Source of the DNA: an uncultured virus (IMG/VR IMGVR_UViG_3300042560_002469)
Taxonomy: Duplodnaviria; Heunggongvirae; Uroviricota; Caudoviricetes
DNA length: 64,000 nt
Reading direction: 5' to 3' (one strand)
Virus record (IMG/VR): IMGVR_UViG_3300042560_002469
The notes under the pieces: generated by a model
What the model was told of the DNA's origin: nothing
The model's database searches: none
Seen by the model: the letters and a program-made list of their open reading frames with translations, nothing else
Program-made: the position numbers and the translations under genes
Part shown: positions 14,870 to 57,268 of the stretch, one piece after another
How the letters are laid out: each line of letters opens with the position of its first letter
Numbering within the stretch: position 1 is the stretch's first letter

Positions 14870-15127
14870 TCATGATGAGAGATCGTAAGAATCGATAATG
14901 GCGCCGGTGTCCCTATCCCAGCAGGTGTGACAGTCGGGGCACTGATAGGCAATACAGCGATCCTGCTGCCAAGAGCTGATGGCAATCACTCGAGAGAACC
15001 ATTCGCTATTTCCAAATAGCCAACGGCTCTTCTCTGGGATTGGCTTGTCGTGCCACAAAGAGCCGCATTCAGGACAATGCTTGAGGCTGACTAAAGAGAT
15101 CACTGAAGTCTTCTGCGAGAGGGGCAT
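14870..15127 (-). CDS. Small Zn-ribbon protein (start uncertain)
   Basis: CPEC...CPDC. Confidence 0.6.
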   Translation of the reverse strand: MPLSQKTSVISLVSLKHCPECGSLWHDKPIPEKSRWLFGNSEWFSRVIAISSWQQDRCIAYQCPDCHTCWDRDTGAIIDSYDLSS

Positions 15128-15187
15128 TGAGCTTGTCGGCAATGACCGCGCCCGCAAAACTTTTTGCAAGCGCGGCTGCTGCCCTAT

Positions 15188-16165
15188 CTACTTTTTTCCT
15201 TCCACGAACACAGACACCCCCTTAATGGCATTGTCAACTGACCCTTCCGAGCAAATAGCTCGCAGGCAATCAACCTCCTTGGTCATGTCAGCCTTGGTGA
15301 TCTTGATACCCTGGGCCTTGGTCCATGATGTGACCATGGTTGTCACCACATTGGCAAACATTTCCCTGTCTTTCACATCTTCTCCCTTGGTAAGCCCAAG
15401 AGCTTCAAGCCCAGCCTTGACAGCTTTCATGCTTGTGGTGCGGTCTGGGTAGCCGAGGGGATTGGCTTCGCCAAAGCCAAGAAGCGCTGCTTTGCCATCG
15501 AACTCGGCTCCTCCACCGGAGGGAGCAGCTTCAGCTCCTCCAATTGCATCATCAGCAGGCACAGGCGTCTCTTGTTTCGTGCTTCGCCGCGCAGACGGCT
15601 TCGCAGTTTCCTGTTGAAGCGGGAGCCGGGGAGACTGCTCTTTTTCATCGTCTGCTTTAGGAATGTCTTCGCCTGAGTAGAGCTTGAGACCAAGACCAGT
15701 GAAGGTGGCGATGCACTTCACGGAAGCCCGCTGGATGTTGTCGCTCACTTGACGAGCATCAAGAGCTTTTACGGCGCTGTGCTTGTTGTCCATGATGGGA
15801 AACACCAGCGCAGGAGTGCGCTTGACGCCATCGGTGAGATAGGGGCGAAGCAGCCAGCAGCCCTCTTGACCGAACACCGGCCAGCCAGCTTCCTTTTCTT
15901 CAAAGGCCACATAAACAGCAGGAAATTGCTCCTTCAAATAGCGGAAGGCAAAGGGCCATGACAGATAGGAAAGGCCTTTATAGTTCTTCTCCACGTGATC
16001 GCCAATAGGCAGCTCGTAAGCCTTGGTGAAGGCTTCTGAGGAAATCTCAAGAGGGGAGAAATGGCCGAGCATTCGTTCGGTCAGCATGGCTTCATTGACG
16101 GCAGTGACGGGAAGAGTCATGTCTTGGAAATGGCTGGGGTCGTAAAAGAGAAGAGAGTTTTTCAT
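15188..16165 (-). CDS. Single-strand annealing protein, Sak3/DUF1071-like; candidate -1 frameshift extension to 15069
   Basis: 'VEK...LSYLSW', 'PIMDNKH', 'QRASVKCIA..GLGLKLYSGED'. Confidence 0.8.
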   Translation of the reverse strand: MKNSLLFYDPSHFQDMTLPVTAVNEAMLTERMLGHFSPLEISSEAFTKAYELPIGDHVEKNYKGLSYLSWPFAFRYLKEQFPAVYVAFEEKEAGWPVFGQEGCWLLRPYLTDGVKRTPALVFPIMDNKHSAVKALDARQVSDNIQRASVKCIATFTGLGLKLYSGEDIPKADDEKEQSPRLPLQQETAKPSARRSTKQETPVPADDAIGGAEAAPSGGGAEFDGKAALLGFGEANPLGYPDRTTSMKAVKAGLEALGLTKGEDVKDREMFANVVTTMVTSWTKAQGIKITKADMTKEVDCLRAICSEGSVDNAIKGVSVFVEGKK

Positions 16166-16344
16166 TCTGCATCTTCTGATGCGGGAAAGTCGAGGCCGGT
16201 GGTCATTTCGTAATCACCATCTTGATTGATCGTGACCAAGAGACTCCCGACCTTTACGCCAGTGTCATCTTCGAACATTTGCAGCACGGCAGCAATGTGA
16301 TCATCAAGCTCATCAAGCCTTGCCGTGAATTCTTGAAGATTCAT
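16162..16344 (-). CDS. Hypothetical protein
   Basis: ATGA-coupled 60-aa ORF. Confidence 0.6.
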   Translation of the reverse strand: MNLQEFTARLDELDDHIAAVLQMFEDDTGVKVGSLLVTINQDGDYEMTTGLDFPASEDAE

Positions 16345-16607
16345 GCCACCCCTTTTGCAGAGTCAAGCTTGTAATGGTTGTCATAAAAGATGACCACCTT
16401 CTGGGCTTTCTCTCCTTCGGAAAAGCACAGGCTTTTGCCGGGAAGCGGCCAGTCTTCTAAAAGGCGCACGTCGCTAATTGCTTCTGTGCAATTTTCGTCG
16501 TACCCTTCCTCTAGGGCAGTTTCTTCAAAACAAAGAAACACTTCTGCTTCATCTCCCGCTTCAATGCGAGCTTTATTCAGAGTGTCAATTAGAGCTTTCA
16601 GTTGCAT
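16341..16607 (-). CDS. Hypothetical protein
   Basis: Coupled 88-aa ORF. Confidence 0.6.
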   Translation of the reverse strand: MQLKALIDTLNKARIEAGDEAEVFLCFEETALEEGYDENCTEAISDVRLLEDWPLPGKSLCFSEGEKAQKVVIFYDNHYKLDSAKGVA

Positions 16608-16843: not shown

Positions 16844-17003
16844 GGCCTCCAAACTGGCTTCCTGAGTTTAGGCCCACAATGCTCTCTTGCAAGCCCTTGT
16901 GCCATCAGGGCTCCTTATGGCATCTTCGTTAAACCATTAAAAAGCCTGCTTGCAGCTAGCGTTCGGGGCTGCCATGATAGGGAGCGCTTCCCGTGCCCGC
17001 TGA

Positions 17004-18944
17004 ATGGCGTTCTCCATCCTTGACTTTCTTGACCAGCTCGAGCCCAGCAACGAAAAGGGGAAATTCCTCTGCCCGGCGTGCGGCGGGAACGATTTTACGG
17101 TCAACAAGAATACTGGAGGCTATAACTGCTGGCACGACCCCTCTCCTGCCCACCGCGCCGACATCCGAGATGCTCTTGCGCCGCTGACACGATGGGAGAA
17201 GCCACCACGCAGTCCTGGCCGTTACGACTTTTCGTACCAGGACAGAGGGGGGTCTGAAATTGTCGTCGTTCATCGCGACGACACAAGCGGCAGCAAAAGG
17301 ATTTGGCAAGATTTTCCCACGATTGAAAAATCATCCAGCGGCCACAAGGCCCAGCTCCAGGAAGTAAAGACAAAGATTCTGCCCTACAAATATCACGAGG
17401 CCATTGCCAAAAGCGAAGCCACTGGTCTGCCTATTTTTATTGTCGAAGGCGAGCTCACTTGCGAATCCATGTGGGCAATCGAACTGCCCTGTGTCACTTT
17501 CCTGGGTGGCTCCAAGCAGTATCGCACTAATGGTGACTATTCAAGCCTGTTCAAAGGGCGCCAGCTTGTTCTGTGTCCGGACAGGGACGAGCAGGGCGTG
17601 GCCTTTATGGCAGAAGTGGCCAATGATAATCCTGGGGCACAGTGGCTTTATGCCGATCCTCGCTCCTGGGAATGGGACAATTTGCCATCAGGCAATGGCT
17701 ATGACATTGGAGACTATATCGAAGAAGGCGCCACGAAAGACGACTTGCTTTCTTCCATTGTCTCAAAAAGCCGCCATAAAAATACTGACGGCAAGCCTTC
17801 TTATGAAGAAATTATTTCCACCATTGAAGGGTTTGTGGGCCTCTATGCCAATGACGCTCGCATTAACTACGAGACCAACTACTGGCTAGAGCAACGTGGC
17901 GTCAAAATGACGCAGCAAAACGTAGAAAAGATCATCGACGAAGCCAGAACGCGAGTGCATGGAAAAGAAGAAATCGAAAGCATAGATGCCCTTACCATCG
18001 CCAGTTCGGACAAGGCTCGTGACTGGCTGATTGCTGGCATTGTTCCCCTGGGCAGTGTGACGCTGCTTGCAGCCGCAGGCGGCACGGGCAAAACGACATT
18101 GCTTTACAACTGGGCCTTGCACGTCGGACTTGGCACGCCATGGAGCGGCAGGAGATGCATGAAAGGAAGATGCCTGCTGATCAGTGCCGATGAGCCTTTG
18201 ACTGATACGGCCGAGAAACTTTCAGTGATTGGCTACCAAGATGCCGGACTAGAGCCGGGTGACATCAGCTTCTGGGAAACCTGGCGCTTTGCCCACATGA
18301 AGCAGCTTGAAGACTACATCAGAAAAGAACGTCCTTCGCTGGTGATGATCGACAGTCTCACGGCTTGCCTTGCGGGCATGAACGTAGATCTTGCGAAGAG
18401 CTCTGCTGGTGATGCCATATATGGCTTGCGCGACATGGCCAATACCTACCGCTGCTCCATTGTCATCTTGCACCATTTGAACAAAAGCGGGGGCCTGCGA
18501 GATTCGACCAGCTTTGTAGATAACGTCAGTGAAGTGGTCAAACTAACCCGCTCAGAAAGCTTCGACCCCAATGAATTCACTTTGGAATGGCTCAAGAGCC
18601 GTAGTGGCCTGACGGGCAAGCACGTCCTAAAACGAGACAGCCTCAACTATGGGTGGCATTATGCCGGACCTCTTGGAGGCTCTCTCGAGGAGCTGAATCA
18701 AGTGGTGAATGTGGTCAACATGCGCAAAACGGAGCGGTTCAACAAGCATCAAGTGGCAAGTTTGTGCGGAAGCTTCGACACTTCTTCGACTGGCAAGATG
18801 CTTGAAGTCGCACGCAGGCAGGGCTTGATCACCAGTAGTTTTGTCAATGGTCCCAATGGTGAAAAGACCAGGGCATATCATTCCTGGGACTACCAAGAAC
18901 CAGACTTTTCCGTTGAAGATGCCGAAGAGGAAGATTTTTTCTAG
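17004..18944 (+). CDS. Primase-helicase (Zn finger, TOPRIM, AAA_25/RepA-like helicase)
   Basis: CPAC; 'IVEGE'; 'PDRDEQG'; Walker A 'AGGTGKT'; Walker B 'MIDS'; 'LHHLNK'. Confidence 0.88.
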   Translation: MAFSILDFLDQLEPSNEKGKFLCPACGGNDFTVNKNTGGYNCWHDPSPAHRADIRDALAPLTRWEKPPRSPGRYDFSYQDRGGSEIVVVHRDDTSGSKRIWQDFPTIEKSSSGHKAQLQEVKTKILPYKYHEAIAKSEATGLPIFIVEGELTCESMWAIELPCVTFLGGSKQYRTNGDYSSLFKGRQLVLCPDRDEQGVAFMAEVANDNPGAQWLYADPRSWEWDNLPSGNGYDIGDYIEEGATKDDLLSSIVSKSRHKNTDGKPSYEEIISTIEGFVGLYANDARINYETNYWLEQRGVKMTQQNVEKIIDEARTRVHGKEEIESIDALTIASSDKARDWLIAGIVPLGSVTLLAAAGGTGKTTLLYNWALHVGLGTPWSGRRCMKGRCLLISADEPLTDTAEKLSVIGYQDAGLEPGDISFWETWRFAHMKQLEDYIRKERPSLVMIDSLTACLAGMNVDLAKSSAGDAIYGLRDMANTYRCSIVILHHLNKSGGLRDSTSFVDNVSEVVKLTRSESFDPNEFTLEWLKSRSGLTGKHVLKRDSLNYGWHYAGPLGGSLEELNQVVNVVNMRKTERFNKHQVASLCGSFDTSSTGKMLEVARRQGLITSSFVNGPNGEKTRAYHSWDYQEPDFSVEDAEEEDFF

Positions 18945-19112
18945 ACTGTCTTCATCGAAGGAGCAACCATGATCATCTGGGACAAGCAAGCTTCTAATGA
19001 AGAAAAAGCTCAGGCAATCGAAGAGGCGCTCGTAGAAGCCGAAACCGAAAAGAAAGAAGAAGAAAGCTCGTTTCTGCGCGACGAATTTGGCCTTGGTCAA
19101 TAGCCTGACATC

Positions 19113-19307
19113 GTGCCTGATTTTCCTTTTCTTGTTGCTTCATGCAGCGGAGGCTGGTGTATTGGTTTTCAAAAAGAAGACGGCTCGTTTGAGCCGTTGT
19201 CTTATGCTTGGCCTTCTGAGGAAGAAGCAAAAGCTTTCTTTGCGATTGCACGGCCGGAGTTAGGCTTCATCCCCAGCGAGCTTCCAGCCAAAAAGAAAAG
19301 GGGCTAA
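19113..19307 (+). CDS. Hypothetical protein
   Basis: 64-aa ORF ending in the terminator. Confidence 0.45.
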   Translation: MPDFPFLVASCSGGWCIGFQKEDGSFEPLSYAWPSEEEAKAFFAIARPELGFIPSELPAKKKRG

Positions 19308-19321
19308 CGCCCCTTTTTTTC
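19296..19321. terminator. Bidirectional intrinsic terminator
   Basis: AAAAGGGGC-TAAC-GCCCCTTTTTT between convergent blocks. Confidence 0.75.
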
Positions 19322-19458
19322 ATGCTGCCAACGAAGACGCTCTAGTTCTCGCTGTTCAGTTTTGTCTTTTCCATAGAGCCATGCTCCTGTTGATTGTCCT
19401 GGTTTTGGACCATTTCGTGGCAGGCGAATGATTCGTGGCTCTTCTGAAGGGCTGCCTG

Positions 19459-30446: not shown

Positions 30447-30686
30447 ATGACTTCCTCCTTCCGCGAAGACCAGCTTGCCTGGATCATCGCCCACTTCCTT
30501 TGCGATGCCAAGCCTGGCGACATCCTGACCCTGCCTGGAGCATCCCTGCTCACCAAAGCCCCTGATGGCAGCTTCTCCCTGGCACGCTCAACTTTCATGG
30601 CTTCCCGCCTGATTGATCCCACCAGCGATAAGATCGCTGCAACAGTGCTTCGATGGGAAAGGGAAGGGGCTCAGGAGGCAGCATGA
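30447..30686 (+). CDS. Hypothetical early protein
   Basis: Own promoter and hairpin leader. Confidence 0.6.
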   Translation: MTSSFREDQLAWIIAHFLCDAKPGDILTLPGASLLTKAPDGSFSLARSTFMASRLIDPTSDKIAATVLRWEREGAQEAA

Positions 30687-46584: not shown

Positions 46585-46614
46585 GTAGCATGGCGGCAGT
46601 TTTTTTTGTTGCCA

Positions 46615-48510
46615 ATGCAACGCATTCTTTACTGTGGAGATGTGGGAGTACAGACGGGTTTCGGGCGTGTCGCGGAGTATTTGATTCCTGCTTTGGCAAA
46701 AGATTATGAAGTGCATGCACTTTCGGTGAATCATCATGGCGACCCATCTCCTATGCAGGACTATTGCCGCATGTATCCGGCCATGGCTCACGGCTCCGAT
46801 CCGTTCGGCTCCCATCGCATTGGCGAGCTTTTGCAGATCATCAAACCAGACTTGGTGTGGGTGACGAATGACATTTGGTGCGCCATCAACCTTTGGGAAG
46901 CGGCCAAACCATTTCAAGAAGCTCTGGGTTTCAAGTGGTTCGTCTACACGCCAATCGACAGCTACGGCCTTTTCCCTGAATTACTGCCTGCGCTAGAAGA
47001 ATGGGACGGCATTGCCACTTACACGCGATTCGGAGCAGAAGAAATCCGAAAGATTGGTTACAAAGACAAAATCCGCGTCGTGGGGCATGGCACTGACTTC
47101 TCGAAGTTCTTCCGTCTCGATCAGGCAGAGTGCCGCAAGGAGCTCGGTGTGCCCGAGGATGTTTTCATTGTGTTCAATGGCAACAGAAATCAGCCGCGCA
47201 AGCGCATCGACTTGACGATCAAGGGTTTTATCAAATTTGCCAAGGACAAGCCAGACGCAAGACTATGGCTCAATATGGGCAAAAAAGACATGGGATGGGA
47301 CTTGGTGCCTCTATTCAAGCGCGTGGCACGAGACGAGGGTTACGACGCAACTGGCAAGCTCATTCTTACCAGTCCGCATTTTTCAACCAGCAACTGCCTT
47401 CCCATTGAACAATTGAACAAGGTGTACAACGCCGTCGACATTGGCGTGAACACTTGCATTGGCGAAGGGTGGGGCTTGGTCAATACAGAACATGCCGCCA
47501 CGGGCGTGGCTCAATTGGTTCCAGACCATACAAGCCTTAAGGAAATCTTTCACGGTGTTCCGCGCATTGCTTGTCATGGTTCTGAAACAGACAGGAATTA
47601 TGGACTCGAGAGGCCATTGCCAGAGCCTGATAGCATGGCCGAGCTCTTGACCGGCTATTACAACAATCGTATGGCCCTTAAACAGGCCGGCGATTGGTGT
47701 TATCAGCGCGTACATGAACAAGAGCTCTCATGGTCTTCCATCCAAAAGCAAATGCTGAACATCGTCAAGGAACTGCTTGTCACGGCAAAGAAAAGCGCTG
47801 CTAAGGGCTTTGCAAAAAAGCCTAAGGGCCAGGGGACGACGAGCTTCCCTGGCCAACAAACTCAATGGATTGATTTCAGCGAAGGTAGCAATGTCTTCTG
47901 TATCAGCATTGAAGGAGATGAACGACGCAAGAAGTTTGCCGATCAAATGGGCAAAATTGAACAAAGATTTAATTGGTGGGCGGCGATCGATGGTCGGCAA
48001 CTGTCTCGCAAGGAGCTAGAAGCGCAAAGTTCAATACCAATCGACTGGGAAATTGACGACGACAAAGACACCTTGAAGCGCACTGGCGAGGCAGCACTAA
48101 TACTTTCTTCCATTGCTCTTTGGAAGCATGCCTTTGACCAAGGCATGGATCATCTTGTGATTCTCGAGGACGATACTGAAGTGATGCGACCGCTGGTTCT
48201 TGAAGTGCCAGAAGATGCGGATCTTGTGTTTTTTAATGATCGCAGCATGCGAAACAAGGATGGCCTCACCTGGGGCTATGTATGTGGCACGGATGGTTAC
48301 TTGATTACCAGGCAAGGCTTATCTAAGCTCCTCAAGGTTTTTTCGCGGGCTTACTTGCCACTGGACCTGCAAATGATTGCCAATACAGAAAGCATGCGAG
48401 ATTGCGAACATCATCTATTCGCCTATCGAAAAGAAGATTTGCCCTTGTTAAAAAGCTACACACTCCCTCCCATCGCCTTCCATAACAACTCTCCCTCACG
48501 CATCCGATGA
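46615..48510 (+). CDS. Glycosyltransferase fusion: GT4 (GT-B) plus GT25-like domain
   Basis: 'TGFGRV', 'NRNQPRKRID', 'EGWGLVNTE' (GT4); 'CISI..DERR', 'AIDG', 'ILEDD' (GT25). Confidence 0.85.
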   Translation: MQRILYCGDVGVQTGFGRVAEYLIPALAKDYEVHALSVNHHGDPSPMQDYCRMYPAMAHGSDPFGSHRIGELLQIIKPDLVWVTNDIWCAINLWEAAKPFQEALGFKWFVYTPIDSYGLFPELLPALEEWDGIATYTRFGAEEIRKIGYKDKIRVVGHGTDFSKFFRLDQAECRKELGVPEDVFIVFNGNRNQPRKRIDLTIKGFIKFAKDKPDARLWLNMGKKDMGWDLVPLFKRVARDEGYDATGKLILTSPHFSTSNCLPIEQLNKVYNAVDIGVNTCIGEGWGLVNTEHAATGVAQLVPDHTSLKEIFHGVPRIACHGSETDRNYGLERPLPEPDSMAELLTGYYNNRMALKQAGDWCYQRVHEQELSWSSIQKQMLNIVKELLVTAKKSAAKGFAKKPKGQGTTSFPGQQTQWIDFSEGSNVFCISIEGDERRKKFADQMGKIEQRFNWWAAIDGRQLSRKELEAQSSIPIDWEIDDDKDTLKRTGEAALILSSIALWKHAFDQGMDHLVILEDDTEVMRPLVLEVPEDADLVFFNDRSMRNKDGLTWGYVCGTDGYLITRQGLSKLLKVFSRAYLPLDLQMIANTESMRDCEHHLFAYRKEDLPLLKSYTLPPIAFHNNSPSRIR

Positions 48511-49442
48511 ATCGCCTCAAGAACGTTCAAATTCAAACGCAAGGAGCCTGTAATGCAAATTGCGTTTTTTGTCCTTGGATAGAAAGTTGGCACCATGCCA
48601 ATTACGGCGTCATGGACAGAAAGTTGTTTTCACGCATCTTGGACATGCTGTTGCCATGGAAAGAGAGTATTGAAAATGGCGGCAAGATTTGTCCCTATTT
48701 AATGCAAGAGCCGTTCGTTGACAAGCGCATTTTTGAGCTGTGCGAAGAAATACAGAGCAAGTTTCCAGGGGCCGTCCTTGAGCTTTCAACAAACGGAGCG
48801 TTGCTTTCTAGAGATAAAACCGAGCGCTTGATTCCGTTGCTAGAAGGCAAGCCCCATGAGGTGTGGGTGAGCCACCATGGCGTCGACAAGGCTTCTCATG
48901 AAGAGATTATGAAGATCAATCACGAACGATCCACTTCTCATTTGATCAATTTAATTAAAGAAGCTAAGGGGCGTCTAAACATTCGAATTCGGGGGAGTGG
49001 ATCTTCTCGTACTGGCATTGGGCGTCACTGGTTTTCTCGTCAGGAGTATTTCGAGTATTGGTACAACCTTTCAAAAGAGCATGGGTTTGATCTCTCGTGG
49101 ATTGATCTGGACTATTTCACTTATCACGACAGGGCTGGAACAATCAACAGAGAGGAGCGGGGTGCTGGCGAGAATAACTTTGGAAAGGTTCGCGACATTG
49201 GCTCAGGTTCGCCGTTCCATTGCAGCCGCCTTGATGAATGGCTCCATGTCATGTGGAATGGAGACATTCGATTGTGTTGCATGGACTATCACGCCGAAGT
49301 TAAGCTCCCCAATCTGAACGATATGACGATTGAAGAATACTATCGAGGAAAGGACTTTGAGCGGGTGACGGCGCAAGTAACGGGGCAAATTGAAAGTCCA
49401 GACGATTTCATTTGCAAAAGATGCACAAGTCCAGGCGGCTAA
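48507..49442 (+). CDS. Radical SAM protein with SPASM/twitch domain
   Basis: CNANCVFC; 'EPF'; 'STNG'; 'WNGDIRLCCMD...CKRC'. Confidence 0.88.
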   Translation: MNRLKNVQIQTQGACNANCVFCPWIESWHHANYGVMDRKLFSRILDMLLPWKESIENGGKICPYLMQEPFVDKRIFELCEEIQSKFPGAVLELSTNGALLSRDKTERLIPLLEGKPHEVWVSHHGVDKASHEEIMKINHERSTSHLINLIKEAKGRLNIRIRGSGSSRTGIGRHWFSRQEYFEYWYNLSKEHGFDLSWIDLDYFTYHDRAGTINREERGAGENNFGKVRDIGSGSPFHCSRLDEWLHVMWNGDIRLCCMDYHAEVKLPNLNDMTIEEYYRGKDFERVTAQVTGQIESPDDFICKRCTSPGG

Positions 49443-49467
49443 GATAAGGGCAGTCTCTTTGAGCAAA

Positions 49468-49719
49468 ATGACCAAGAAAGAAAAGCAGGCAAAAATTCGC
49501 ACTGTCATGAGGGAGTTCAAGGCCGGCAAGCTCAAAAGCAGCAGTGGCGAACCAGTCAAGAGCCCTCAGCAGGCTCTCGCGATTGCACTGTCCGAAGCTG
49601 GAATGTCTCGGAAGCCCAAACAGGATATGGGCGACGAGTATTACATGGCCTTCATGAAAGAACTTGGAGGCGCAGAAGAGGAAGAAGAGGGCATGAAAGA
49701 TTCAATGGGAAAGGACTGA
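49468..49719 (+). CDS. DUF6496-like small basic protein; candidate -1 frameshift fusion to 50066
   Basis: 'KIRTVMREFKAGKLKSSSG..VKSPQQALAIALSEA'; ends G GGA AAG GAC TGA. Confidence 0.8.
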   Translation: MTKKEKQAKIRTVMREFKAGKLKSSSGEPVKSPQQALAIALSEAGMSRKPKQDMGDEYYMAFMKELGGAEEEEEGMKDSMGKD

Positions 49720-50066
49720 GGGGCGACGCTGAATCATTCGCCCCTCCATCGTCTGTTCGTGCCGCAGCGCGTCGTGGTCTCGAGCTTCGCAGAAAATACG
49801 GCAAGGGTGGTCTGACCACGCAAGAGGCGGGAAAGCAGGGCATTGGCAGCGGTGTGGCCAGGGCCACGAGTTTGGCCAGCGGAAAAGCTGTGAGCTACGA
49901 AACCATCAAGCGTATGGCTGCATTTTTCTCTCGCCATGCGAAGAATTTTGCCGGCGGAGAAGACGATGCGGGATTCGTATCAATGCTGTTATGGGGTGGA
50001 ACTGCGGGTAGGGCCTGGGCCAATCGCATCATTAAGATGGTTGAAAGTCGCGATAAGGGTCAATGA
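49713..50066 (+). CDS. -1 frame extension domain lacking its own start codon
   Basis: 'FAPPSSVRAAARRGLELR...GVARA...ETIKRMAAFFSRH...LWGG.AGRAWA' begins about 47 codons upstream of the first GTG (49854). Confidence 0.7.
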   Translation, partial: GLRGDAESFAPPSSVRAAARRGLELRRKYGKGGLTTQEAGKQGIGSGVARATSLASGKAVSYETIKRMAAFFSRHAKNFAGGEDDAGFVSMLLWGGTAGRAWANRIIKMVESRDKGQ

Positions 50067-50374
50067 GCGAATACGTGCGTGTCATTGAGGAAGAAGAGGA
50101 AGACGGCATTGGCGTCATGAAGGCCCTTGCCATTCTTTCTTCCCAAGAGCATCGCGGCACCTCTCAATGGCGCCTCGTTGAGCGGCAGCACTTCAGGAAT
50201 GGAAGGCTTGACGAAACTCACATTTTTGTTGAGAGTTTTTATGACAAGCCCGACGAGCATTTTGAGCCCGTAAAAATGCTCACCTTTGAAGCAGAGGCTA
50301 TTGCCAAGGCCTATGTGATGGAAAACATTGAAGCTCAAATTCGCGAAATTCAGGACGAAGACGACGAGGATTGA
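50063..50374 (+). CDS. Hypothetical acidic protein
   Basis: ATGA coupling. Confidence 0.65.
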   Translation: MSEYVRVIEEEEEDGIGVMKALAILSSQEHRGTSQWRLVERQHFRNGRLDETHIFVESFYDKPDEHFEPVKMLTFEAEAIAKAYVMENIEAQIREIQDEDDED

Positions 50375-50649
50375 GCGGCATTAACCACGAAGTTGGGCAT
50401 TCCTAGTAACCAAAGCACGGACAGACCATAGAGACCGCTCAGGGTTGCAAGCTGAACTGCAGAAGGCTCTGTTTCGGCGCTTTCCATTCTGCAATAAGTG
50501 GCTTGACCTATGTGCAGTTCCTTGGCAACGGTTCTTTGCGACAGTCCGCTATTCAATCGGGCATCCCTCATGCGCTCTGCCACAAGCAGTCTCCTTTGGT
50601 AGTGGGGCATGCGGAGGGCATTGGCCTTGCTTGCCATTAAGTAGCGCAT
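50350..50649 (-). CDS. XRE/Cro-family HTH regulator
   Basis: 'RMRDAR..SGLSQRTVAKELHIGQATYCRMES...PS...L..L..LYG.S..WLL'. Confidence 0.8.
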   Translation of the reverse strand: MRYLMASKANALRMPHYQRRLLVAERMRDARLNSGLSQRTVAKELHIGQATYCRMESAETEPSAVQLATLSGLYGLSVLWLLGMPNFVVNAAQSSSSSS

Positions 50650-50710
50650 TTTGATTCGCGTATGGATCAGGAGTTGTGGATATTGTAATAGATCTTGCTA
50701 GTTTTACACT

Positions 50711-51904
50711 ATGAGCGAAACTTCTTTTCGTTACGATGTCGCGCCCATTGAAAAGTATGAGCTAACCCCCGAGGGTTATCTTCGTACTTGGGCCACCATT
50801 GCTCGCACAGGTGTACAGATGTACACCGATGCGGACGGTGGGGTTCGGCGTGAATATCGTCCCGAAGAAGAAGTGGGCTCGCCAGAAAGCCTCGCTTCGT
50901 TTGCGGGCAAGGCTGTAACTTTTGAACATCCCCCCGCTCTGCTTGACAGCGCCAATACGAAGGACTATCAAATTGGTTTTTCAGGCACTGAAGTGGTTTA
51001 TGACAACGGTTTCGTCCGTGCCGTCATGACCATTACTGACAAGGATGCGATTGAACGCATTATGCGGGGTGATGCAAAAGAAGTGAGTGCTGGTTACAGG
51101 GTGCAATTTGACCCGACGCCCGGCGTTGCGGAAAGCGGTGAACATTACGACGGCATCCAGCGGATGATCGATGGTAATCACATTGCCGTTGTTCGCAGGG
51201 GCAGGGCAGGCCCGCAGGTGAAGCTTCATCTAGATCGCCTAGATGCCGCCGACCCATCTTTACTATCTCCCATTGAGGAACCATCTATGACTGCTAAGGT
51301 CAATTTTGATGGCGCCGAGTTCGAGGTGAGCGAGAGCGTTGCTCTGGCGATCACCAAAGAGCGCGAAGATGCCAAAATGTCCTACGAGGACATGAAGAAA
51401 AAATACGATGCCATGATGGCCGAAGCTTCCAAAATGAAGGAAGAAATGGACGCCATGGGCAAAGAAATGAAGGGCAAGTGTGATTCCGCCGAGGGTCGCG
51501 CTGATGCTCTGGAGCAAGAGCTTGAGGCCGCCAAGGCCGAGCTGGAAGCTGCAAAGCAAGTGAACATTGATTCGCTTGTTGAAGAGCGTGTTGCTCTGAT
51601 CGACAAAGCTCGCACCACCCTGGATAGCGAGTTTGATTTCGCAGGCAAGGATGCCCGTGAAATCATGGAAGCCGCTGTCAAGGCGGTTCGTGGCGATGCC
51701 ATTGATCTGTCGGAGAAGTCCGACGATTACGTGCAGGCCATGTTCGACACCCTGGCCGAGTCGGCTCGTAGCGATTCTGCCGCCACCGATGAGCTTCGCA
51801 AAGCCGTTGCTTCCATCGCCTCTCCCGCCTCTGCACCCTCCTCTTACATGGAGCGACTGCAGAACGCTTGGAAGACCCCTCTTTCCATCTCCAAGGAGCG
51901 CTGA
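50711..51904 (+). CDS. Prohead protease-scaffold (DUF2213)
   Basis: 'TPEGYL...IARTGVQ', 'VTFEHP', 'EVSAGY', 'NHIAVVRRGRAG' plus coiled-coil scaffold. Confidence 0.88.
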   Translation: MSETSFRYDVAPIEKYELTPEGYLRTWATIARTGVQMYTDADGGVRREYRPEEEVGSPESLASFAGKAVTFEHPPALLDSANTKDYQIGFSGTEVVYDNGFVRAVMTITDKDAIERIMRGDAKEVSAGYRVQFDPTPGVAESGEHYDGIQRMIDGNHIAVVRRGRAGPQVKLHLDRLDAADPSLLSPIEEPSMTAKVNFDGAEFEVSESVALAITKEREDAKMSYEDMKKKYDAMMAEASKMKEEMDAMGKEMKGKCDSAEGRADALEQELEAAKAELEAAKQVNIDSLVEERVALIDKARTTLDSEFDFAGKDAREIMEAAVKAVRGDAIDLSEKSDDYVQAMFDTLAESARSDSAATDELRKAVASIASPASAPSSYMERLQNAWKTPLSISKER

Positions 51905-51907
51905 TCC

Positions 51908-52471
51908 ATGGCCGTTACTTTCACCCCTTCGGGCACGGCTACTGCAGGTGGTGTTCAGCAGAGCTATTCGCTTGAGCTGACCGCCCTCCTCGAAGGCCAA
52001 CTGTCCGACATTCGCGACAACACCATCAGCACTTTCATCAACGAAACTGGTGCTGTGATTCCTTTCGGTAACATCGTCACTTGGGCAAGTGGCGGCACTG
52101 TTGCTAACTCCGCTAAGACCATTAGCGGCACGAGCGAGACCGTGGTGGGCGTCAATGCTCTCACCTATGTCGACGAAACCGCTGAAGACGCTAATAGCCG
52201 TCCTGGCGTAAAGGCCGCCCAGGCAATGAACGTTGTCAACGAGGGCGCTGTTGCCATGTACGTGCATGGTTCTGTCACCCCTGCCACTGCAGTGCGCGTG
52301 ATCCACACCGCTACCGGCGTGCAGTATGCAGGTCAACTGCGTAGCGCATCGCTTTCGGGCAAGACTGCTGTTCTTTCGAACGCTCGTTACCTCACTTCTG
52401 TCACCGGCTCTGGCCTGGCGGTTGTTGAGTTCAACGGTCCTGCCTTCACCCTCACCGCTGACAATTCCTGA
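51908..52471 (+). CDS. Capsid decoration/cement protein
   Basis: Between protease and MCP; 'IPFG', 'NVVNEG.V'. Confidence 0.7.
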   Translation: MAVTFTPSGTATAGGVQQSYSLELTALLEGQLSDIRDNTISTFINETGAVIPFGNIVTWASGGTVANSAKTISGTSETVVGVNALTYVDETAEDANSRPGVKAAQAMNVVNEGAVAMYVHGSVTPATAVRVIHTATGVQYAGQLRSASLSGKTAVLSNARYLTSVTGSGLAVVEFNGPAFTLTADNS

Positions 52472-52485
52472 TAGGAGGCCCTCCA

Positions 52486-53391
52486 ATGTCTGATTTTCGC
52501 ATGGACGAAGCGGGTCTGTTTCTCGAGCGTCAGCTTGAGTACATCCGCCCCCAGGTGTTTGAAGTTCAGTACGCTGACATCAAATACCCCACTATCCTGC
52601 CTGTGACCAGCGAGGCTGGTCCTGGCGCCCAGACCTTCACCTACCGCATCATGGATGCCACTGGTGAATTCAAGGTGATTGCCGACGCTGCTGACGATCT
52701 GCCCCGTGCGGACATCAGCCAAACCGAGAAGAGCATCAACATCCGCTCGATCGGTGGCTCGTTTGGTTACACCGTTCAAGAGCTTCGTGCTGCACAGATG
52801 GCGAACATCGCCCTTGAGCAGCGCCGCGCTTCTGCCGTTCGCCGCGCTTACGAGGAGAAGGTGGAAGACATCGCCATGTTTGGCGAAGCTTCTGTTGGCC
52901 TGAGTGGTTTCTTCAACAATTCCACGGTCGACCTTGTGGTTGCCGATAAGTGGTTCACTGATAGTGGCACCACTGCCCAGGAAATGCTTGAGCTGCTGAA
53001 CTATGGCGTGAGCGCCATTGTCAATGGCTCCAAGATGAAGGAGGAGCCTGACACCATCCTCATGCCCTATGAGGACTACAACAAAGTCAGCACCACCCGT
53101 AATAGCGACTCTTCGGACGTGACTGTGCTGGAGTACTTCCTGCGCACCAATCCCTACATCCGCAACGTTGAACCCATCAACCAGCTTGATGCCGACAACA
53201 GCGTGCTGGATAAGAACCGCATGGTGGTATACAAGCGCGACCCCCAGAAAGTGCAACTGCACATTCCTCAGCCGCTTGAGCTGTTCCCGCCTCAGCAGCG
53301 TGGCCTGGAATTCATTGTTCCCGCCCATGCTCGTGTTGGTGGCGTGGCTCTCTACTACCCCAAGAGCGTCATCTACGTTCAAGACAACTGA
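52486..53391 (+). CDS. Major capsid protein (DUF2184, HK97 fold)
   Basis: AGGAGG RBS; 'FLERQLE', 'ADDLPRAD', 'YTVQEL', 'ARVGGV..YYP'. Confidence 0.9.
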   Translation: MSDFRMDEAGLFLERQLEYIRPQVFEVQYADIKYPTILPVTSEAGPGAQTFTYRIMDATGEFKVIADAADDLPRADISQTEKSINIRSIGGSFGYTVQELRAAQMANIALEQRRASAVRRAYEEKVEDIAMFGEASVGLSGFFNNSTVDLVVADKWFTDSGTTAQEMLELLNYGVSAIVNGSKMKEEPDTILMPYEDYNKVSTTRNSDSSDVTVLEYFLRTNPYIRNVEPINQLDADNSVLDKNRMVVYKRDPQKVQLHIPQPLELFPPQQRGLEFIVPAHARVGGVALYYPKSVIYVQDN

Positions 53392-53439
53392 ACGTGATCG
53401 GGGCGTTAAGCTTGTTGGCAGTTCTTATAGAACATTCAA

Positions 53440-53826
53440 ATGTTGATCGCTTATCGCCCTGAGCTCGAAAATCCGCCTCGTGAAGGGGGACTTGGCGTTA
53501 TTACTGACGCCGGCATGATTCAGCTCAGTCCGGGGGTGAATTCAGACGTGCCAGAGACCAAGTGGGCTCAAGCACGAAGCAATGGAACCGTCAAGCGCCT
53601 TATGGCAATTGGCGCCATTGAAGAGCTGAAAGAAACCCCCACTGTTCAGGACATTCCCCAAAAGGTGTCCACACTTGCCGGCCTTCCACTTTCTGATGCC
53701 GTCCGCATGATTGAAATTATGCACGACGAGGATCAGCTCCAGGAATGGAAAAAAGTGGAAGGTCGCGTAAGGGTGCGCAATGCCATCAGCAAGCGTCTTG
53801 AAGCCATCCGCATTGGAAAAGCCTGA
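53440..53826 (+). CDS. Hypothetical head-associated protein
   Basis: Position after MCP. Confidence 0.65.
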   Translation: MLIAYRPELENPPREGGLGVITDAGMIQLSPGVNSDVPETKWAQARSNGTVKRLMAIGAIEELKETPTVQDIPQKVSTLAGLPLSDAVRMIEIMHDEDQLQEWKKVEGRVRVRNAISKRLEAIRIGKA

Positions 53827-53828
53827 TC

Positions 53829-54140
53829 ATGGCCGTTACCTACGCCAGCTTTCTCGAGCGCTTTCCTGAGTTCACTCCCCATCCATCGGGAATTGTGAAT
53901 GGGGCCATCACCGAGGCAACCGCTGATGTGGGCGACGTGTTTGGCGATCAAGCCGACCGTGCAACAAAGCATTTAGCCGCTCATATCATCGCCATTCAAC
54001 TTGCTCAAATGGGCATCCAAATTGGAGCCACAGACGGCAAGGTGTATGGCAAAGGACTTGAGGCCACGCAATATGGCCAAGAGTTCAAGCGAATGCTTGA
54101 AACCGTCGTTGGTGCTTCTTCCATTGGCTTTGTCGTATGA
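53829..54140 (+). CDS. Head-tail adaptor (DUF4054-like)
   Basis: 'FLERFPEF', 'LAAH', 'TQYGQEF'. Confidence 0.8.
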   Translation: MAVTYASFLERFPEFTPHPSGIVNGAITEATADVGDVFGDQADRATKHLAAHIIAIQLAQMGIQIGATDGKVYGKGLEATQYGQEFKRMLETVVGASSIGFVV

Positions 54141-54526
54141 CAAACGTGCTCGCTCCACTTGCTAATGCCACTCTGGTTTGGCAGGTGGCGTCTGGGTATG
54201 TGGTCGAAAGCGGCACTGGCAACTATGTGGCTACTGCCACTGGCGTTACCTACTATGCCTCGTTGAAGCAGAAGCAAAATCCTCGTTTCGATTATTTGCT
54301 TGGTGCGGACAATACAGCGGTGTACATGGAAGGGCGACTGACTGGTCCATTGACCTTGTCGGGAATCACTCCTGGAAGCTCTGCTGCTGCAACAATCAAT
54401 GGAAGGGAGGGACGGTTTGAGCTATTGCCAAACGAGCAAATTGCTGACCATTATTGGCAATTCCTCGGCACGCCAATCAGGGGTATTTTTAGACTGGTTG
54501 GCAAAGGAAGCGTTCAGAACGTCTGA
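54137..54526 (+). CDS. Putative head-closure protein
   Basis: Position; beta-rich. Confidence 0.55.
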   Translation: MTNVLAPLANATLVWQVASGYVVESGTGNYVATATGVTYYASLKQKQNPRFDYLLGADNTAVYMEGRLTGPLTLSGITPGSSAAATINGREGRFELLPNEQIADHYWQFLGTPIRGIFRLVGKGSVQNV

Positions 54527-54563
54527 CGCTTAACCATTTTCTCTTTCCATTGAGGATCTTCTC

Positions 54564-55142
54564 ATGCTCTATCATCCCACCGAGCTGGTTAAGAGCCAAG
54601 ACGTTATTGTGCGCGTTGGCTCGATTATCACTGCTTCTGGTCGCCCTGTCATCACTCAGAGTGGTGCAACCTTCACTGTTAGTGGCGCTCCCACCCTGTA
54701 CACCCTGCAAGCGGCCACAACTGCTTCCGTTGCCTTTAACGATGGCAACACCGAATTCTACCTGCTGGGCGGCGGCGGCTTCTCTGACAGCGTGATTGTC
54801 ACCTCTCAGGCCACTGCCTCCATCACTTCTTACTTCCAGAAGGATGTTGATGGTACCACTTTCGTGCCCGATAGCTTTGACGAGGCCTTCCAGGTGATCG
54901 CCACTGGTCGTTACGACAAGACTGCGGAAGTGTATGTCGAAATCAACAAGCAGCTTGGCTCCAGCGGTACCACTTACTACTACGATCGCGTGGCTTATGT
55001 TGGCCGCGTGATGAACTATAACGAAAGCTATCCTGCTGACAATCTTGTGGAAGTCACTTTCGACCTGATTAGCCGTGGTCGCATTGGCATTCATCAAGCC
55101 GCAACCAGCTCCGGCAGCATCATTCCTACGGCTCCCAACTGA
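54564..55142 (+). CDS. Major tail (tube) protein
   Basis: T/S/G-rich, 'NLVEVTFDLISRG'; followed by terminator. Confidence 0.75.
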   Translation: MLYHPTELVKSQDVIVRVGSIITASGRPVITQSGATFTVSGAPTLYTLQAATTASVAFNDGNTEFYLLGGGGFSDSVIVTSQATASITSYFQKDVDGTTFVPDSFDEAFQVIATGRYDKTAEVYVEINKQLGSSGTTYYYDRVAYVGRVMNYNESYPADNLVEVTFDLISRGRIGIHQAATSSGSIIPTAPN

Positions 55143-55165
55143 TCTTTTGGGCTGTTTTCTTGCTA

Positions 55166-55191
55166 GCCTCTCCTTACGGAGGGGCTTTTTT
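55166..55191 (+). terminator. Intrinsic terminator
   Basis: AGCCTCTCC-TTAC-GGAGGGGCT-TTTTT. Confidence 0.75.
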
Positions 55192-55602
55192 ATGAACATT
55201 CTTCAGCTTAGGGAAGTTGTAGTGGAACTTCTTGGAGCGGCCCCGAATTTGATTGGTACTTACATCCTGCCAAATAACAGCACCATTCCTGCAGTGTATG
55301 TTGTTGGACAGAAAAGCGTTCCAAGTGAATGGAAGGTGACTGGGCTAGAGGTGACAATGCGACAGTATCCAGAATTGTTACCGGCCTCTCCGTTAAGTGG
55401 CACTGTCAAGGTTTCGCAAATATGGGAAGTGGTATTGGTTCAATACAATCCAGATGGCAAGCAAATTGCAGAGGCGATGGAAAGAATGGTCAGGCGGTTT
55501 CCAGATTCTACGCCTCGCTATTTCCCTGGTGATGATGTAGCTTACGAGCGTTGTCGCTTTTCAATACCAGACCTTGTCCTCCATCGCCTTTATCCAGCAT
55601 GA
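55192..55602 (+). CDS. Putative tail terminator protein
   Basis: Position and size. Confidence 0.55.
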   Translation: MNILQLREVVVELLGAAPNLIGTYILPNNSTIPAVYVVGQKSVPSEWKVTGLEVTMRQYPELLPASPLSGTVKVSQIWEVVLVQYNPDGKQIAEAMERMVRRFPDSTPRYFPGDDVAYERCRFSIPDLVLHRLYPA

Positions 55603-56069
55603 GTGCAGTTATTGTTGGAGCAACATTGTCTAGCACCAAAAGACTTGAGGCTCAGTTGACTCAGGCTTTTGCCAACTGGGCACGAGAAGATGTTAACGAG
55701 TATTTTCGAGAGCAGTTTACAGAGCCAATTTGGCTATACAGCAGAGAGACCACTAGGCGCAATCCTGGCGCTCCAATTAAAGAAGCAGGATCTCCTCGAG
55801 ACATTTACGACTACGGCGAGCTGTACGAAAGTGGCAGAAACAGTTTTTCCATCTCACAAGGCGGTGTCAATATTTCTGCTTCTTGGCACTGGGATGCTAA
55901 AAACAGCTCTGGTCGTCCATACGCTTATTACGTTCACGAGGGAGAGGGTACGAACTACGGAAATCCTCGTCCCTGGACAGACGTTTTTATTGTGGGAAGC
56001 AAGTTTCAAGCCAGTCCTTTGCGGGCGGAGCTCATTTCTCGCATTAGAAGCGCATCAATGAGCCGATGA
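55599..56069 (+). CDS. Putative tail completion/neck protein
   Basis: 'PRDIYDYGEL', 'YAYYVHEG...PRPW'. Confidence 0.6.
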   Translation: MSAVIVGATLSSTKRLEAQLTQAFANWAREDVNEYFREQFTEPIWLYSRETTRRNPGAPIKEAGSPRDIYDYGELYESGRNSFSISQGGVNISASWHWDAKNSSGRPYAYYVHEGEGTNYGNPRPWTDVFIVGSKFQASPLRAELISRIRSASMSR

Positions 56070-56323
56070 AGATTGATTATTTGCATAGCGCCGACAATTT
56101 GGTTCACGCCATCAATATCAGCATTGATGGTGCCGCAATGGAAGTGGGCATCCTTTGTCTTATTTCCCATAGACAGGCGACCATTAGAATTGCGAACGAC
56201 TACCACTCGTTCCTCGTTGAAATACCTCCTCAGTTTCGCTCTAGTTTTGAGCGAGTGAAAGTGTTCAACGCTCTTCTCAACATTCTCGATCATGAGCAAA
56301 TACAGTTTTCTGCTGGAGACTAA
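56066..56323 (+). CDS. Hypothetical protein
   Basis: ATGA coupling. Confidence 0.5.
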   Translation: MKIDYLHSADNLVHAINISIDGAAMEVGILCLISHRQATIRIANDYHSFLVEIPPQFRSSFERVKVFNALLNILDHEQIQFSAGD

Positions 56324-56840
56324 GGAAGAAGGTTTTTGCGAGCTTCTGCCTGGCTTGCGCCTGAAAAAGTTTGGGGGATGGCTTGTTGCTGAGGCCATTG
56401 AGCAAGAGGAGATCGGCAAGCTTCAAAGCCAGGCGACGATCAAAGCTGTTCAATTGGCAAAAAGAATTGCCACTTCAAAGGGCATCAACTTGGACGAAGC
56501 TTTTGCCCTGCTCCAAGGCGGAGGTGGCACAATCAGCGAGGCAGAGCTTCTCTCCGAATTTACGGAAGAAACCCTGAGCATGCTGACAAGTGGCTCTTCT
56601 GTCGAAGCTACCAACGCGCGAATGGTCACTGCCTTTATTCGCTCTCGCGGACAAGGGTTGATCGATGGGGAATGGCGTGATATTGGAGATTGGAGCACAG
56701 AGGACACCAACGCGCTTCCACGTCGCATTATTGCCAAGGTGGTTGAATTTATCAGCTCTGAGCAGGAATCAGAAATGAAGGAGGCCGGAGAAGCAAAAAA
56801 AGCGTCGAAGAGGAATTCCCCTCCATCGCAGAACAGTTAG
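56292..56840 (+). CDS. Tail assembly chaperone (gpG-like)
   Basis: Upstream of tape measure; slippery A AAA AAA at 56795-56801. Confidence 0.75.
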   Translation: MSKYSFLLETKEEGFCELLPGLRLKKFGGWLVAEAIEQEEIGKLQSQATIKAVQLAKRIATSKGINLDEAFALLQGGGGTISEAELLSEFTEETLSMLTSGSSVEATNARMVTAFIRSRGQGLIDGEWRDIGDWSTEDTNALPRRIIAKVVEFISSEQESEMKEAGEAKKASKRNSPPSQNS

Positions 56841-57268
56841 AAGCCCAGGCCAGAAAGTTTCTGGCCTCAATGACAAATTGGAATGAGCTGTATTTTCGGC
56901 TTGTGTCTTCGGACTTTAGGGATGATCGCTGGAGCTCGCAAAATTTTGGCAGACAAAGACTAAAAGATGTTCAGGCTGCATTGAAATATCTGGAGAAGCA
57001 CGACATAGCGAAGTACAACATTCAAAGCATTGCGACGGCAAAGTTTGGCGCAATGGCGTCCACCATGATGGGCGGCAAGAAGGGTTCGATTAAGGCCGAC
57101 TACTTTTTACCGTTCGACGTTAAGAAGATTCAAAAAGAGGAGAGCGTCACTGGTGAAAGCATGGCCGTACTACAACGATTGATGAAGCAGAGACGAATGG
57201 ATGGAAGGGTGATTGCGCTGCTTGCTGACGAGCTCAAGACATTCAGCAGCCGTAACCAGGACCAATGA
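56801..57268 (+). CDS. Tail assembly chaperone -1 extension (gpT-like)
   Basis: Open from the slippery site (SVEEEFPSIAEQLEAQARKFLAS) into 56870-57268. Confidence 0.7.
   Translation, partial: SVEEEFPSIAEQLEAQARKFLASMTNWNELYFRLVSSDFRDDRWSSQNFGRQRLKDVQAALKYLEKHDIAKYNIQSIATAKFGAMASTMMGGKKGSIKADYFLPFDVKKIQKEESVTGESMAVLQRLMKQRRMDGRVIALLADELKTFSSRNQDQ

Follow-up and report, generated by a model that had tools for sequence, protein, structure and literature searches.

Four Candidate Frameshift Signals in a Cyanosiphovirus Genome

The stretch of DNA analyzed here (hereafter, the window) comprises 64,000 nucleotides (nt) of an uncultured virus recorded in IMG/VR as IMGVR_UViG_3300042560_002469 (Duplodnaviria; Heunggongvirae; Uroviricota; Caudoviricetes). 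Four of its genes carry a slippery heptamer of the form X XXY YYZ at which ribosomes may move into the -1 frame. These are a gene for a Sak-type single-strand annealing protein (SSAP; site S1), a gene joining GT4-like and GT25 glycosyltransferase domains (S2), a small DUF6496 gene of the head module (S3), and the tail assembly chaperone gene (S4; Table 1). The signals themselves, their conservation and covariation in relatives, a coding signature in the -1 frame, and naturally fused forms are all observed. From these comparisons, we consider that the window probably holds four functional, bacterial-type programmed -1 frameshift signals within a single phage genome.

The window covers the greater part of one phage genome, that of a freshwater cyanosiphovirus. 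A cultured relative is Synechococcus phage S-CBS4, a siphovirus that infects Synechococcus sp. CB0101. The structural genes of the two share 77% DNA identity, and the order portal, glycosyltransferase, protease, capsid, tail, and tape measure is common to both. Nearly identical DNA is present in lake-water metagenomes. The window has a G+C content of 51.7%, and no tRNA genes were found within it.

Table 1. Features of the four candidate frameshift loci in the window (0 frame, frame of the upstream gene; SD, Shine-Dalgarno; aa, amino acids; bp, base pairs; ORF, open reading frame).
Site	Feature	Position	Strand	Basis
S1	0-frame gene, Sak-type SSAP, 325 aa, ends GGA AAA AAG TAG	15188..16165	-	PF06378, phrog_8492
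S1	Heptamer A AAA AAG, context ggA AAA AAG TAG; TAG at 15188-15190	15197-15191	-	sequence
S1	Hairpin, 19 bp interrupted, 7 nt 3' of heptamer	15138..15183	-	folding
S1	-1-frame extension, 40 codons (VDRAAAALAKSFAG...), then TGA	15069..15191	-	sequence, relatives
S2	0-frame gene, GT4-like (residues 5-390) and GT25 (429-588), 634 aa from first TTG	46606..48510	+	phrog_2170, PF01755
S2	Heptamer A AAA AAG, gcA AAA AAG CCT AAG, residue 404, domain junction	47814-47820	+	sequence
S2	Hairpin, 6 nt 3' of heptamer	47827..47854	+	folding
S3	0-frame gene, DUF6496, MTKKEK..., ends ATG GGA AAG GAC TGA	49468..49719	+	PF20106
S3	Heptamer G GGA AAG, one codon 5' of TGA at 49717-49719	49707-49713	+	sequence
S3	Hairpin, 9 bp, 4 nt 3' of heptamer	49718..49746	+	folding
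S3	-1-frame domain, 117 codons (GLRGDAESFAPP..., GLRGDAESFAPPSSVRAAARRGLELRRKYGKGG...)	49713..50066	+	phrog_2859
S4	0-frame gene, tail assembly chaperone, G-like, 182 aa	56292..56840	+	directly upstream of tape-measure gene
S4	SD-like AAGGAGG, exactly 10 nt upstream of heptamer	56778..56784	+	anti-SD pairing
S4	Heptamer A AAA AAA, context gcA AAA AAA GCG	56795-56801	+	sequence
S4	-1-frame T-like extension, 155 codons	56801..57268	+	sequence, relatives
	Tape-measure protein ORF, 1695 aa	57293..62380	+	S-CBS4 syntenic gene annotated tape measure

A first-pass annotation of the window had claimed genome-wide use of -1 frameshifting to make short and long protein isoforms. All four heptamers it named lie where it had placed them, in the 0-frame register of the upstream ORF. 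The stems it described at S1-S3 fold as described, with spacers of 7, 6, and 4 nt, and its account of the context also held, since S1 and S3 sit at a 0-frame stop and S2 at a domain junction. It had proposed alignment of homologous loci as a check; in such alignments the heptamers and stop contexts are kept and the hairpins at S1-S3 covary. The signature seen in related assemblies and in S-CBS4 thus supports the suggestion that recoding may yield short and long isoforms. "Genome-wide" was too strong, as there are four sites and no further convincing one was found in the window.

Taken alone, a heptamer could well arise by chance. In a crude set of 110 ORFs without overlaps, XXXYYYZ occurs in frame 80 times, 13 times as an efficient type (seven AAAAAAG, five GGGAAAG, and one AAAAAAA). 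The four sites exceed chance because of their stop context, the strength of their stimulators, and their conservation in relatives. For the stimulators, hairpin z-scores were computed against dinucleotide shuffles, and percentiles against 1500 random 45-mers from the window. Conservation was compared with that of control heptamers in the same genes: those at 46656, 46926, 46971, and 47223 in the glycosyltransferase gene are kept in 0, 3, 6, and 3 of 53 distinct homologues, and one at 56477 in the chaperone gene is kept in 1 of 39, as compared to 39 of 39 for the S4 heptamer.

The DUF6496 Gene and Its Downstream Domain

Judged by its relatives, S3 is very probably a programmed -1 frameshift site. 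The 0-frame gene matches PF20106 (E 2.2e-07; 31.6 bits, cut-off 24), with the start in the ORF list being a TTG at 49390, and the domain in the -1 frame matches phrog_2859 (E 4.4e-14). This second frame contains no ATG, GTG, or TTG from 90 codons upstream to 47 codons downstream of the site, the first being at 49854. The hairpin has a minimum free energy (MFE) of -18.5 kcal/mol (z -3.16, 2.5 percentile).

Of 80 related loci, 79 were evaluable, and 62 of these have a heptamer at the exact position and a 0-frame stop within one codon. Three heptamers occupy the position, namely A AAA AAG (29 loci), G GGA AAG (26), and C CCA AAG (7), and the stop follows one codon later in 57 loci (TGA in 31, TAA in 26) or immediately in five. 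A further 16 of the 79 loci encode the DUF6496 part and the C-domain as a single-frame fusion with no slippery site (six distinct ORFs, 182-215 aa), and one (L051) has the C-domain as a stand-alone gene. Three swappable heptamers together with natural fusions are the pattern classically taken as proof. An 8-bp stem (49719-49726/49738-49745, 5 nt past the heptamer) is conserved in 43 of 43 distinct sequences, with a single covarying pair (AU 22, CG 10, UG 3, GU 2, GC 1, broken 5). The same arrangement is present in cultured S-CBS4, where agA AAA AAG GGC TAA is followed by the stem; gp019 of that phage is annotated from an internal GTG and thus loses the conserved N-terminal 14 residues.

Upstream elements differ among the S3 relatives by heptamer type. 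Poly-glutamate codons (GAG GAG GAA) provide an SD-like GGAGG 6-19 nt 5' of the heptamer in relatives, and an SD-like upstream element in the top 10% of background is found at 17 of 23 GGGAAAG and CCCAAAG sites vs. 3 of 19 AAAAAAG sites. The window's own S3 has no SD-like upstream element. In two relatives (L003 and L004), the 0 frame is open for 311 codons and the DUF6496 part lies inside a protein of ~300 aa that is enlarged at both ends, by a cysteine-rich region at the N-terminus and a further region at the C-terminus; its reading frame still closes with C CCA AAG, a single codon, and a stop.

An AlphaFold2 model of a naturally fused homologue (L048; mean predicted local distance difference test score, pLDDT, 83.6) suggests that the C-domain is helical. 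Neither structural match to this model was retained: the best Foldseek hit in PDB was unconvincing (E 0.95), and the best VIA-align hit (Z 6.2), a de novo designed helical protein, falls short of what counts as meaningful among helical bundles. A search of the ESM Atlas with the S3 product returned unnamed viral clusters only, and BLASTP of the product against the DUF5872 region at the portal C-terminus gave no match. No fold or family match was thus informative for the C-domain. Free of any frameshift, the C-domain forms the N-terminus of 258-264-aa proteins (coding sequences of 777 and 795 nt) in Vibrio and Limnohabitans phages, directly upstream of a ~400-aa gene, a ~130-aa gene, and the major capsid gene. 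Because this order matches the DUF2213 protease and capsid block of the window, we regard the C-domain as a head-module component. The homologues lie at 2498-3274 in Vibrio phage 1.270.A (L307) and at 1329-2123 in Limnohabitans phage DC31 (L308), and tblastn with the C-domain also matches Roseobacter, Pseudomonas, and Halorubrum viruses.

A Conserved Putative Tail Behind the Annealing Protein

For S1, too, we hold with good confidence that the related genomes point to a programmed -1 frameshift site. The annealing protein is matched by PF06378 (SSAP_Sak; E 1.6e-18, 67.2 bits, cut-off 22.3) and phrog_8492 (E 1.4e-43), and the hairpin behind its stop codon is strong (MFE -31.5 kcal/mol, z -5.18, 0.1 percentile). 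Neither Pfam nor PHROG has a family that matches the extension.

Of 40 related loci, 39 were evaluable (L192 ends at residue 272), and in all 39 the SSAP ORF ends at one aligned residue. Counting S-CBS4 (tcA AAA AAG TAG) and the window, a permitted heptamer stands at the 0-frame stop in 41 of 41 cases. It takes two forms in the relatives: A AAA AAG followed directly by TAG, TAA, or TGA (24/39), or G GGA AAG followed by one codon (CAA, CAG, or AAA) and then TAG or TAA (15/39). From either heptamer, -1 reading enters one common conserved peptide of 23-43 codons. Its consensus is VDLAAARLARAFAG, which may be summarized as (V/I)D(L/R)AAA(R/A)LA(R/K)xFAG and an acidic end resembling D/N-x-D-G-x-P-L-x-E; all 34 sequences share A6 and G14, and 33 of them retain F12 and A13. 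Pairwise divergence of the -1 frame by codon position (first 22 codons, 34 distinct sequences) is 0.366/0.269/0.554. The third position is the most divergent, which is a coding signature. By the same measure, the last 22 codons of the SSAP gave 0.443/0.458/0.647, making the -1 peptide the more conserved of the two.

The downstream structure is maintained by compensatory change in both clades. Sixteen sequences of the window clade share a 13-bp core that is 91.8% paired, with four compensatory pairs; once the outer pairs are included, the structure begins 7-8 nt past the heptamer. Eighteen sequences of the sister clade share a different, interrupted hairpin of 15 bp at a spacer of 4-8 nt (90.7% paired, eight compensatory pairs), whose inner 7 bp are 97.6% paired with compensatory change in five of the seven pairs.

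A protein search with residues 180-325 of the SSAP returned 195 homologues at E <= 1e-5. Among the 120 listed of these 195, all end no more than one residue past GK or KK, at a maximum length of 325 aa; the C-termini are GKQ in 85, GKK in 18, EGK in eight, GKR in six, and GKL, GKH, and AKK in one each.

As to function, the alanine-rich part of the tail is predicted by eye to be helical, and its acidic end with hydrophobic residues resembles, as we presume, the C-terminal tails of single-strand-binding proteins. The tail could be a partner-binding or autoregulatory module carried by a fixed fraction of the subunits. Downstream of the SSAP gene, and in its 0 frame, a small zinc-ribbon-like protein (CPECG...CPDC) is encoded at 14870-15169 on the minus strand.

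A Glycosyltransferase in Two Frame Arrangements

The GT4-like domain of the S2 gene is identified by phrog_2170 (E 6.7e-51) and the GT25 domain by PF01755 (E 5.9e-14); the gene likely starts at the ATG at 46615. S2 is probably a programmed -1 frameshift site as well, here one at which shifting would truncate the protein, with GCC and then TAA (47823-47825) in the -1 frame. The hairpin behind it is stable (MFE -20.0 kcal/mol, z -3.64, 0.3 percentile), and the upstream SD-like element in the window is weak (20th percentile).

GT4 stands alone in 70 of 80 related loci, mostly as a protein of ~409-411 aa ending ...KGFGTPAKIV, that is, a few residues beyond the position equivalent to the window's heptamer. 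A GT25 homologue was absent from the fetched flanks of all 70, and GT4 is a separate gene in S-CBS4. Conversely, every GT25-bearing form has xxA AAA AAG at the junction. These forms belong to six lineages reaching down to 47% identity; the single-sequence GT25 scan reached close relatives only, and the divergent lineages came from a metagenome profile scan and a scan seeded with L293.

Four lineages carry the fusion in the 0 frame: the window clade (L201-L204, L206, L207, L221, L291, and L292), L205 (82% identity), L232 (72%), and L305 (47%, 667 aa). For the first three of these, -1 reading ends at the second codon (GCC TAA, GAC TGA, and GCT TGA, respectively), while the 0-frame residues at this place vary (PK, TE, and LE); in L305, the -1 stop comes after four codons. 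In the other lineages the arrangement is reversed. The 0 frame of L293, L294, and L302 ends at ggA AAA AAG TAG, and that of L303 and L304 at ggA AAA AAG CAA TAG, and in all five the whole 229-aa GT25 lies in the -1 frame.

A hairpin lies 4-6 nt past the heptamer in five of the six lineages. Its arms in the window are GGCCAGGGGA/UUCCCUGGCC, and in L232 they are GGCCGGGG/CCCCGGCC, with a compensatory A-U to G-C change. L293 has a 12-bp stem of unrelated sequence at the equivalent place, of which L303 carries a compensated variant, and the structure predicted for L305 starts ~4 nt past its heptamer.

Two side observations concern this gene. In one IMG/VR relative, L208, 7 nt within the KGF codons are missing ~20 nt upstream of A AAA AAG, so that the GT4 frame passes into another frame and ends at 468 aa, which could reflect a natural variant, a pseudogene, or an assembly error. 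The GT4-GT25 gene and a radical-SAM/SPASM enzyme gene (48507-49442) together occupy 46606-49442 of the head module, between portal-side genes and the protease; this placement suggests modification of a virion protein, possibly glycosylation.

The 80 in-frame heptamers of the window, the unmatched extension at S1, and the failure of a fused SSAP to appear among the homologues searched could also be taken to mean that only the tail-chaperone site is real. S1-S3 would then be incidental and their hairpins would serve mRNA stability or processing, with the downstream frames untranslated at S1, irrelevant at S2, and independently initiated at S3, where in some relatives a possible start codon (ATG, GTG, or TTG) precedes the site by a few codons in the -1 frame. 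This account does not explain why heptamers are conserved and interchanged at the positions of S1-S3 and not at control heptamers, why the -1 frame at S1 shows a coding signature and a conserved peptide, or why S2 occurs in both frame arrangements with one heptamer. At S3, it also has to contend with the 16 single-frame fusions and, in the window, with 47 codons past the site that offer no start codon. We regard it as unlikely, and favor programmed signals at all four sites.

Several observations nonetheless weigh against that preferred reading. No in-frame fusion of the SSAP to the tail motif was found among the 120 listed of the 195 homologues, and a profile of 18 extension peptides had no match in longer proteins, a search that counts as weak evidence. 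Given this and the uniform C-termini, the split arrangement seems obligatory in the clade. The S1 extension also overlaps the next gene, as a probable ATG near 15127 sits inside it. At S2, the heptamer is A AAA AAG only, with no interchange, the independent lineages are few (about six), and the two lysines could be partly a constraint at the protein level. The codons that form the S3 stem (RGD...S/APP) are themselves strongly conserved, and fused homologues retain part of it, which leaves one informative pair and makes the stem weaker evidence than the heptamer pattern. Finally, related sequences are not independent samples, and shuffle controls of pair counts overstate significance.

The Tail Chaperone Site and Alternatives to Ribosomal Slippage

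From sequence comparison, S4 is almost certainly a programmed -1 frameshift site. Two overlapping ORFs adjoin the tape-measure gene, and the arrangement is therefore that of G/GT, although the gene has no Pfam or PHROG match at the thresholds used. In 79 evaluable contigs out of 80 (L086 runs off its contig), the heptamer is kept without exception, as AAAAAAA in 76 and AAAAAAG in three. The -1 extension spans 140-146 codons in 77 of the 79, the other two being cut by the contig end. S-CBS4 has the equivalent arrangement, annotated as two genes, gp032 and gp033. No downstream structure was found at S4 (z -0.85). The SD-like element of the window pairs with the anti-SD at a duplex energy of -12.1 kcal/mol (0.3 percentile of the window), and all 52 distinct S4 sequences have such an element, mostly (A/C)AGGAGG and mostly 10-14 nt upstream, within the top 1.5% of window background. 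S4 is the well-known G/GT frameshift, to which this dnaX-like 5' stimulator is an added detail.

The heptamers at S2 and S4 are A-rich only (six A and a G, and seven A), and at these two sites the phylogenetic pattern also fits transcriptional slippage, by which RNA polymerase adds or drops an A in A-runs and so joins the frames. At S1 and S3, however, the A-run is freely swapped for G GGA AAG or C CCA AAG, which have three A, as expected of tandem tRNA slippage and not of the polymerase; the occurrence of these variants makes transcriptional slippage unlikely there. Moreover, the hairpins and SD-like stimulators stand at ribosomal distances, and productive transcriptional slippage in bacteria has been described for stretches of ~9 A or T (PMC5009743). 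As an explanation of the sites we find it quite improbable; at S2 and S4 it is a possible contributor to ribosomal frameshifting.

Homopolymers are, in addition, places where sequencing or assembly indels may break single ORFs, and the A-runs at all four sites are prone to such errors, as the deletion of 7 nt just 5' of S2 in L208 might illustrate. Yet 39-79 independent assemblies per site, and cultured S-CBS4 as well, show one and the same frame arrangement, and the GGGAAAG and CCCAAAG sites contain no long homopolymer. The indel errors of which the first-pass annotation had warned are not seen at S2-S4 in independent metagenome contigs. Those from another sample and another study (X2) have zero differences over 47665-49517 (S2), 49491-51400 (S3), and 56763-57300 (S4), and in a further run of this kind (X3), the contigs crossing S3 and S4 are free of indels. 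Since independent contigs and the recurrence in relatives agree, sequencing error is effectively excluded, and we assign it only a minute probability next to programmed frameshifting. Contigs from RNA libraries (X20 and X19) match parts of 50164-57300 only, outside the shift sites.

Other Heptamers and Indels in the Window

Three other heptamers were considered and rejected. A AAA AAG at 19319 (minus strand) has GGGGC-GTTA-GCCCC and then a T-run behind it, the pattern of an intrinsic terminator; within 19290-19325, the heptamer lies two codons ahead of the stop codon that closes a 52-aa ORF, and the terminator probably ends the minus-strand transcription unit. G GGA AAG at 30655 is at codon 2 of a small ORF and out of register with the overlapping upstream ORF. 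T TTT TTC at 18935 was dropped because it lacks downstream structure (81st percentile); it lies directly 5' of TAG (18935-18944) at the end of a 646-aa ORF (17004-18944), with a -1 extension of 18 codons.

The only indels reported by the lake-metagenome contigs in the 10.7 kb from 46600 to 57300 are at 52464-52484, and consist of a 3-nt deletion and single-A insertions. They fall at the boundary between an ORF at 51908-52471 and the major capsid ORF at 52486-53391.

Comparison With Known Frameshift Systems

S4 resembles the lambda G/GT system in that overlapping ORFs precede the tape measure, the -1 shift falls late in the first of them, and the resulting extension is long and T-like. It differs in its A AAA AAA heptamer (that of lambda G/GT is G GGA AAG), in the conserved SD-like AGGAGG 10-14 nt upstream, and in having no family match. 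The G/GT frameshift is conserved in tailed phages (Xu et al., 2004, cited in PMC5009743 and PMC10885494).

S2 is closest to Escherichia coli dnaX, with which it shares the A AAA AAG heptamer, a hairpin downstream (at 6 nt in S2), and a shifted product that would lack the C-terminal domain. The three heptamers seen at S3 likewise belong to the X XXA AAG class, which is reported to be highly shift-prone in E. coli (PMC5009743). Unlike dnaX, however, S2 lies in a phage GT4-GT25 gene instead of a clamp-loader subunit gene, and, where dnaX has an upstream SD, the SD-like element of S2 in the window is weak. The likeness extends to reversal, since some S2 relatives stop in the 0 frame and would make the long form by shifting. 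A reversal of which dnaX product needs the shift is known in some bacteria (PMC5009743; Atkins, 2016), and the explanation given there is that efficiency is close to 50%, so that a single nucleotide change can swap the roles (PMC5009743). By this analogy, the efficiency of shifting at S2 may be high.

S3, and S2 of the L293 type, are also reminiscent of the orfA-orfB arrangement of IS3 and IS911, in which A AAA AAG is combined with a structure, the 0-frame ORF ends at or after the heptamer and shifting fuses it to a downstream domain without a start. Here, however, the genes are those of a head-module protein and a glycosyltransferase and not transposases, and simple hairpins act as the putative stimulators. 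That a siphovirus genome may have more than one programmed -1 frameshift is known from Lactobacillus phage A2, which needs two, for its major head and tail proteins (PMC5009743). The A2 sites are in virion structural proteins, whereas two of the four sites described here are in non-structural enzymes, a recombinase and a glycosyltransferase.

Recoding as a Possible Expression Strategy in S-CBS4-Like Phages

Taken together, these patterns would be accounted for by two tRNAs slipping back one base on X XXA AAG or A AAA AAA with the help of a nearby stimulator, so that each of the four genes would yield two proteins in a set ratio. At S1, the slip would add a ~40-aa tail to a fraction of the annealing protein. 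At S2, unshifted ribosomes would make the bifunctional 634-aa enzyme and shifted ones would stop one codon later, leaving GT4 alone. At S3, the small DUF6496 protein would be joined to a helical domain of 117 aa that lacks its own start codon, and at S4 the G and G-T tail assembly chaperones would result. We infer the slipping itself, its efficiency, and the roles of the isoforms from sequence comparison.

To our knowledge, frameshifts in phages have seldom been recognized beyond tail chaperones, a few capsid and tail proteins, and gene 10 of the T7 type. In titles and abstracts, with subscription journals mostly outside the search, we saw no account of a frameshifted phage annealing protein, glycosyltransferase, or DUF6496 gene, nor of frameshifting in S-CBS4, whose record has no slippage annotated. 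Of 2476 joined frameshift genes in SEA-PHAGES annotation, 2397 are given as tail chaperones (PMC10885494). The mechanism is thus classical, and the target genes at S1-S3 and the number of sites in one genome appear to be new.

Comparative support is strong for three further gene classes, namely the Sak-type annealing protein, the GT4-GT25 glycosyltransferase, and the DUF6496 head-module protein. The annotation of gp018/gp019, gp032/gp033, and gp079 in S-CBS4 would be corrected accordingly, as would that of many metagenomic relatives. S2 would be a second natural case of the dnaX-style reversal between truncating and extending shifts, and a frameshift-dependent SSAP tail would offer a new handle on the regulation or partner coupling of phage recombinases, of interest for recombineering. 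As S-CBS4 and its host can be cultured, these predictions are directly testable.

We lean slightly toward a broader proposal, that -1 frameshifting is a general expression strategy of S-CBS4-like cyanosiphoviruses and not a peculiarity of tail genes. The annealing protein may thereby gain a conditional C-terminal tail for partner binding or autoregulation, the virion-module glycosyltransferase would be made in both single and bifunctional form, and the head-module protein would exist only as a trans-frame fusion. That lineages have flipped which S2 form needs the shift would, under this proposal, imply an efficiency near 50%. How slippery A_AAG is depends on the lysine-tRNA repertoire of the host. 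If frameshifting is indeed a general strategy in these phages, their picocyanobacterial hosts would be unusually permissive for A_AAG slippage, and many "hypothetical" short ORFs in aquatic phages would be mis-annotated halves of recoded genes.

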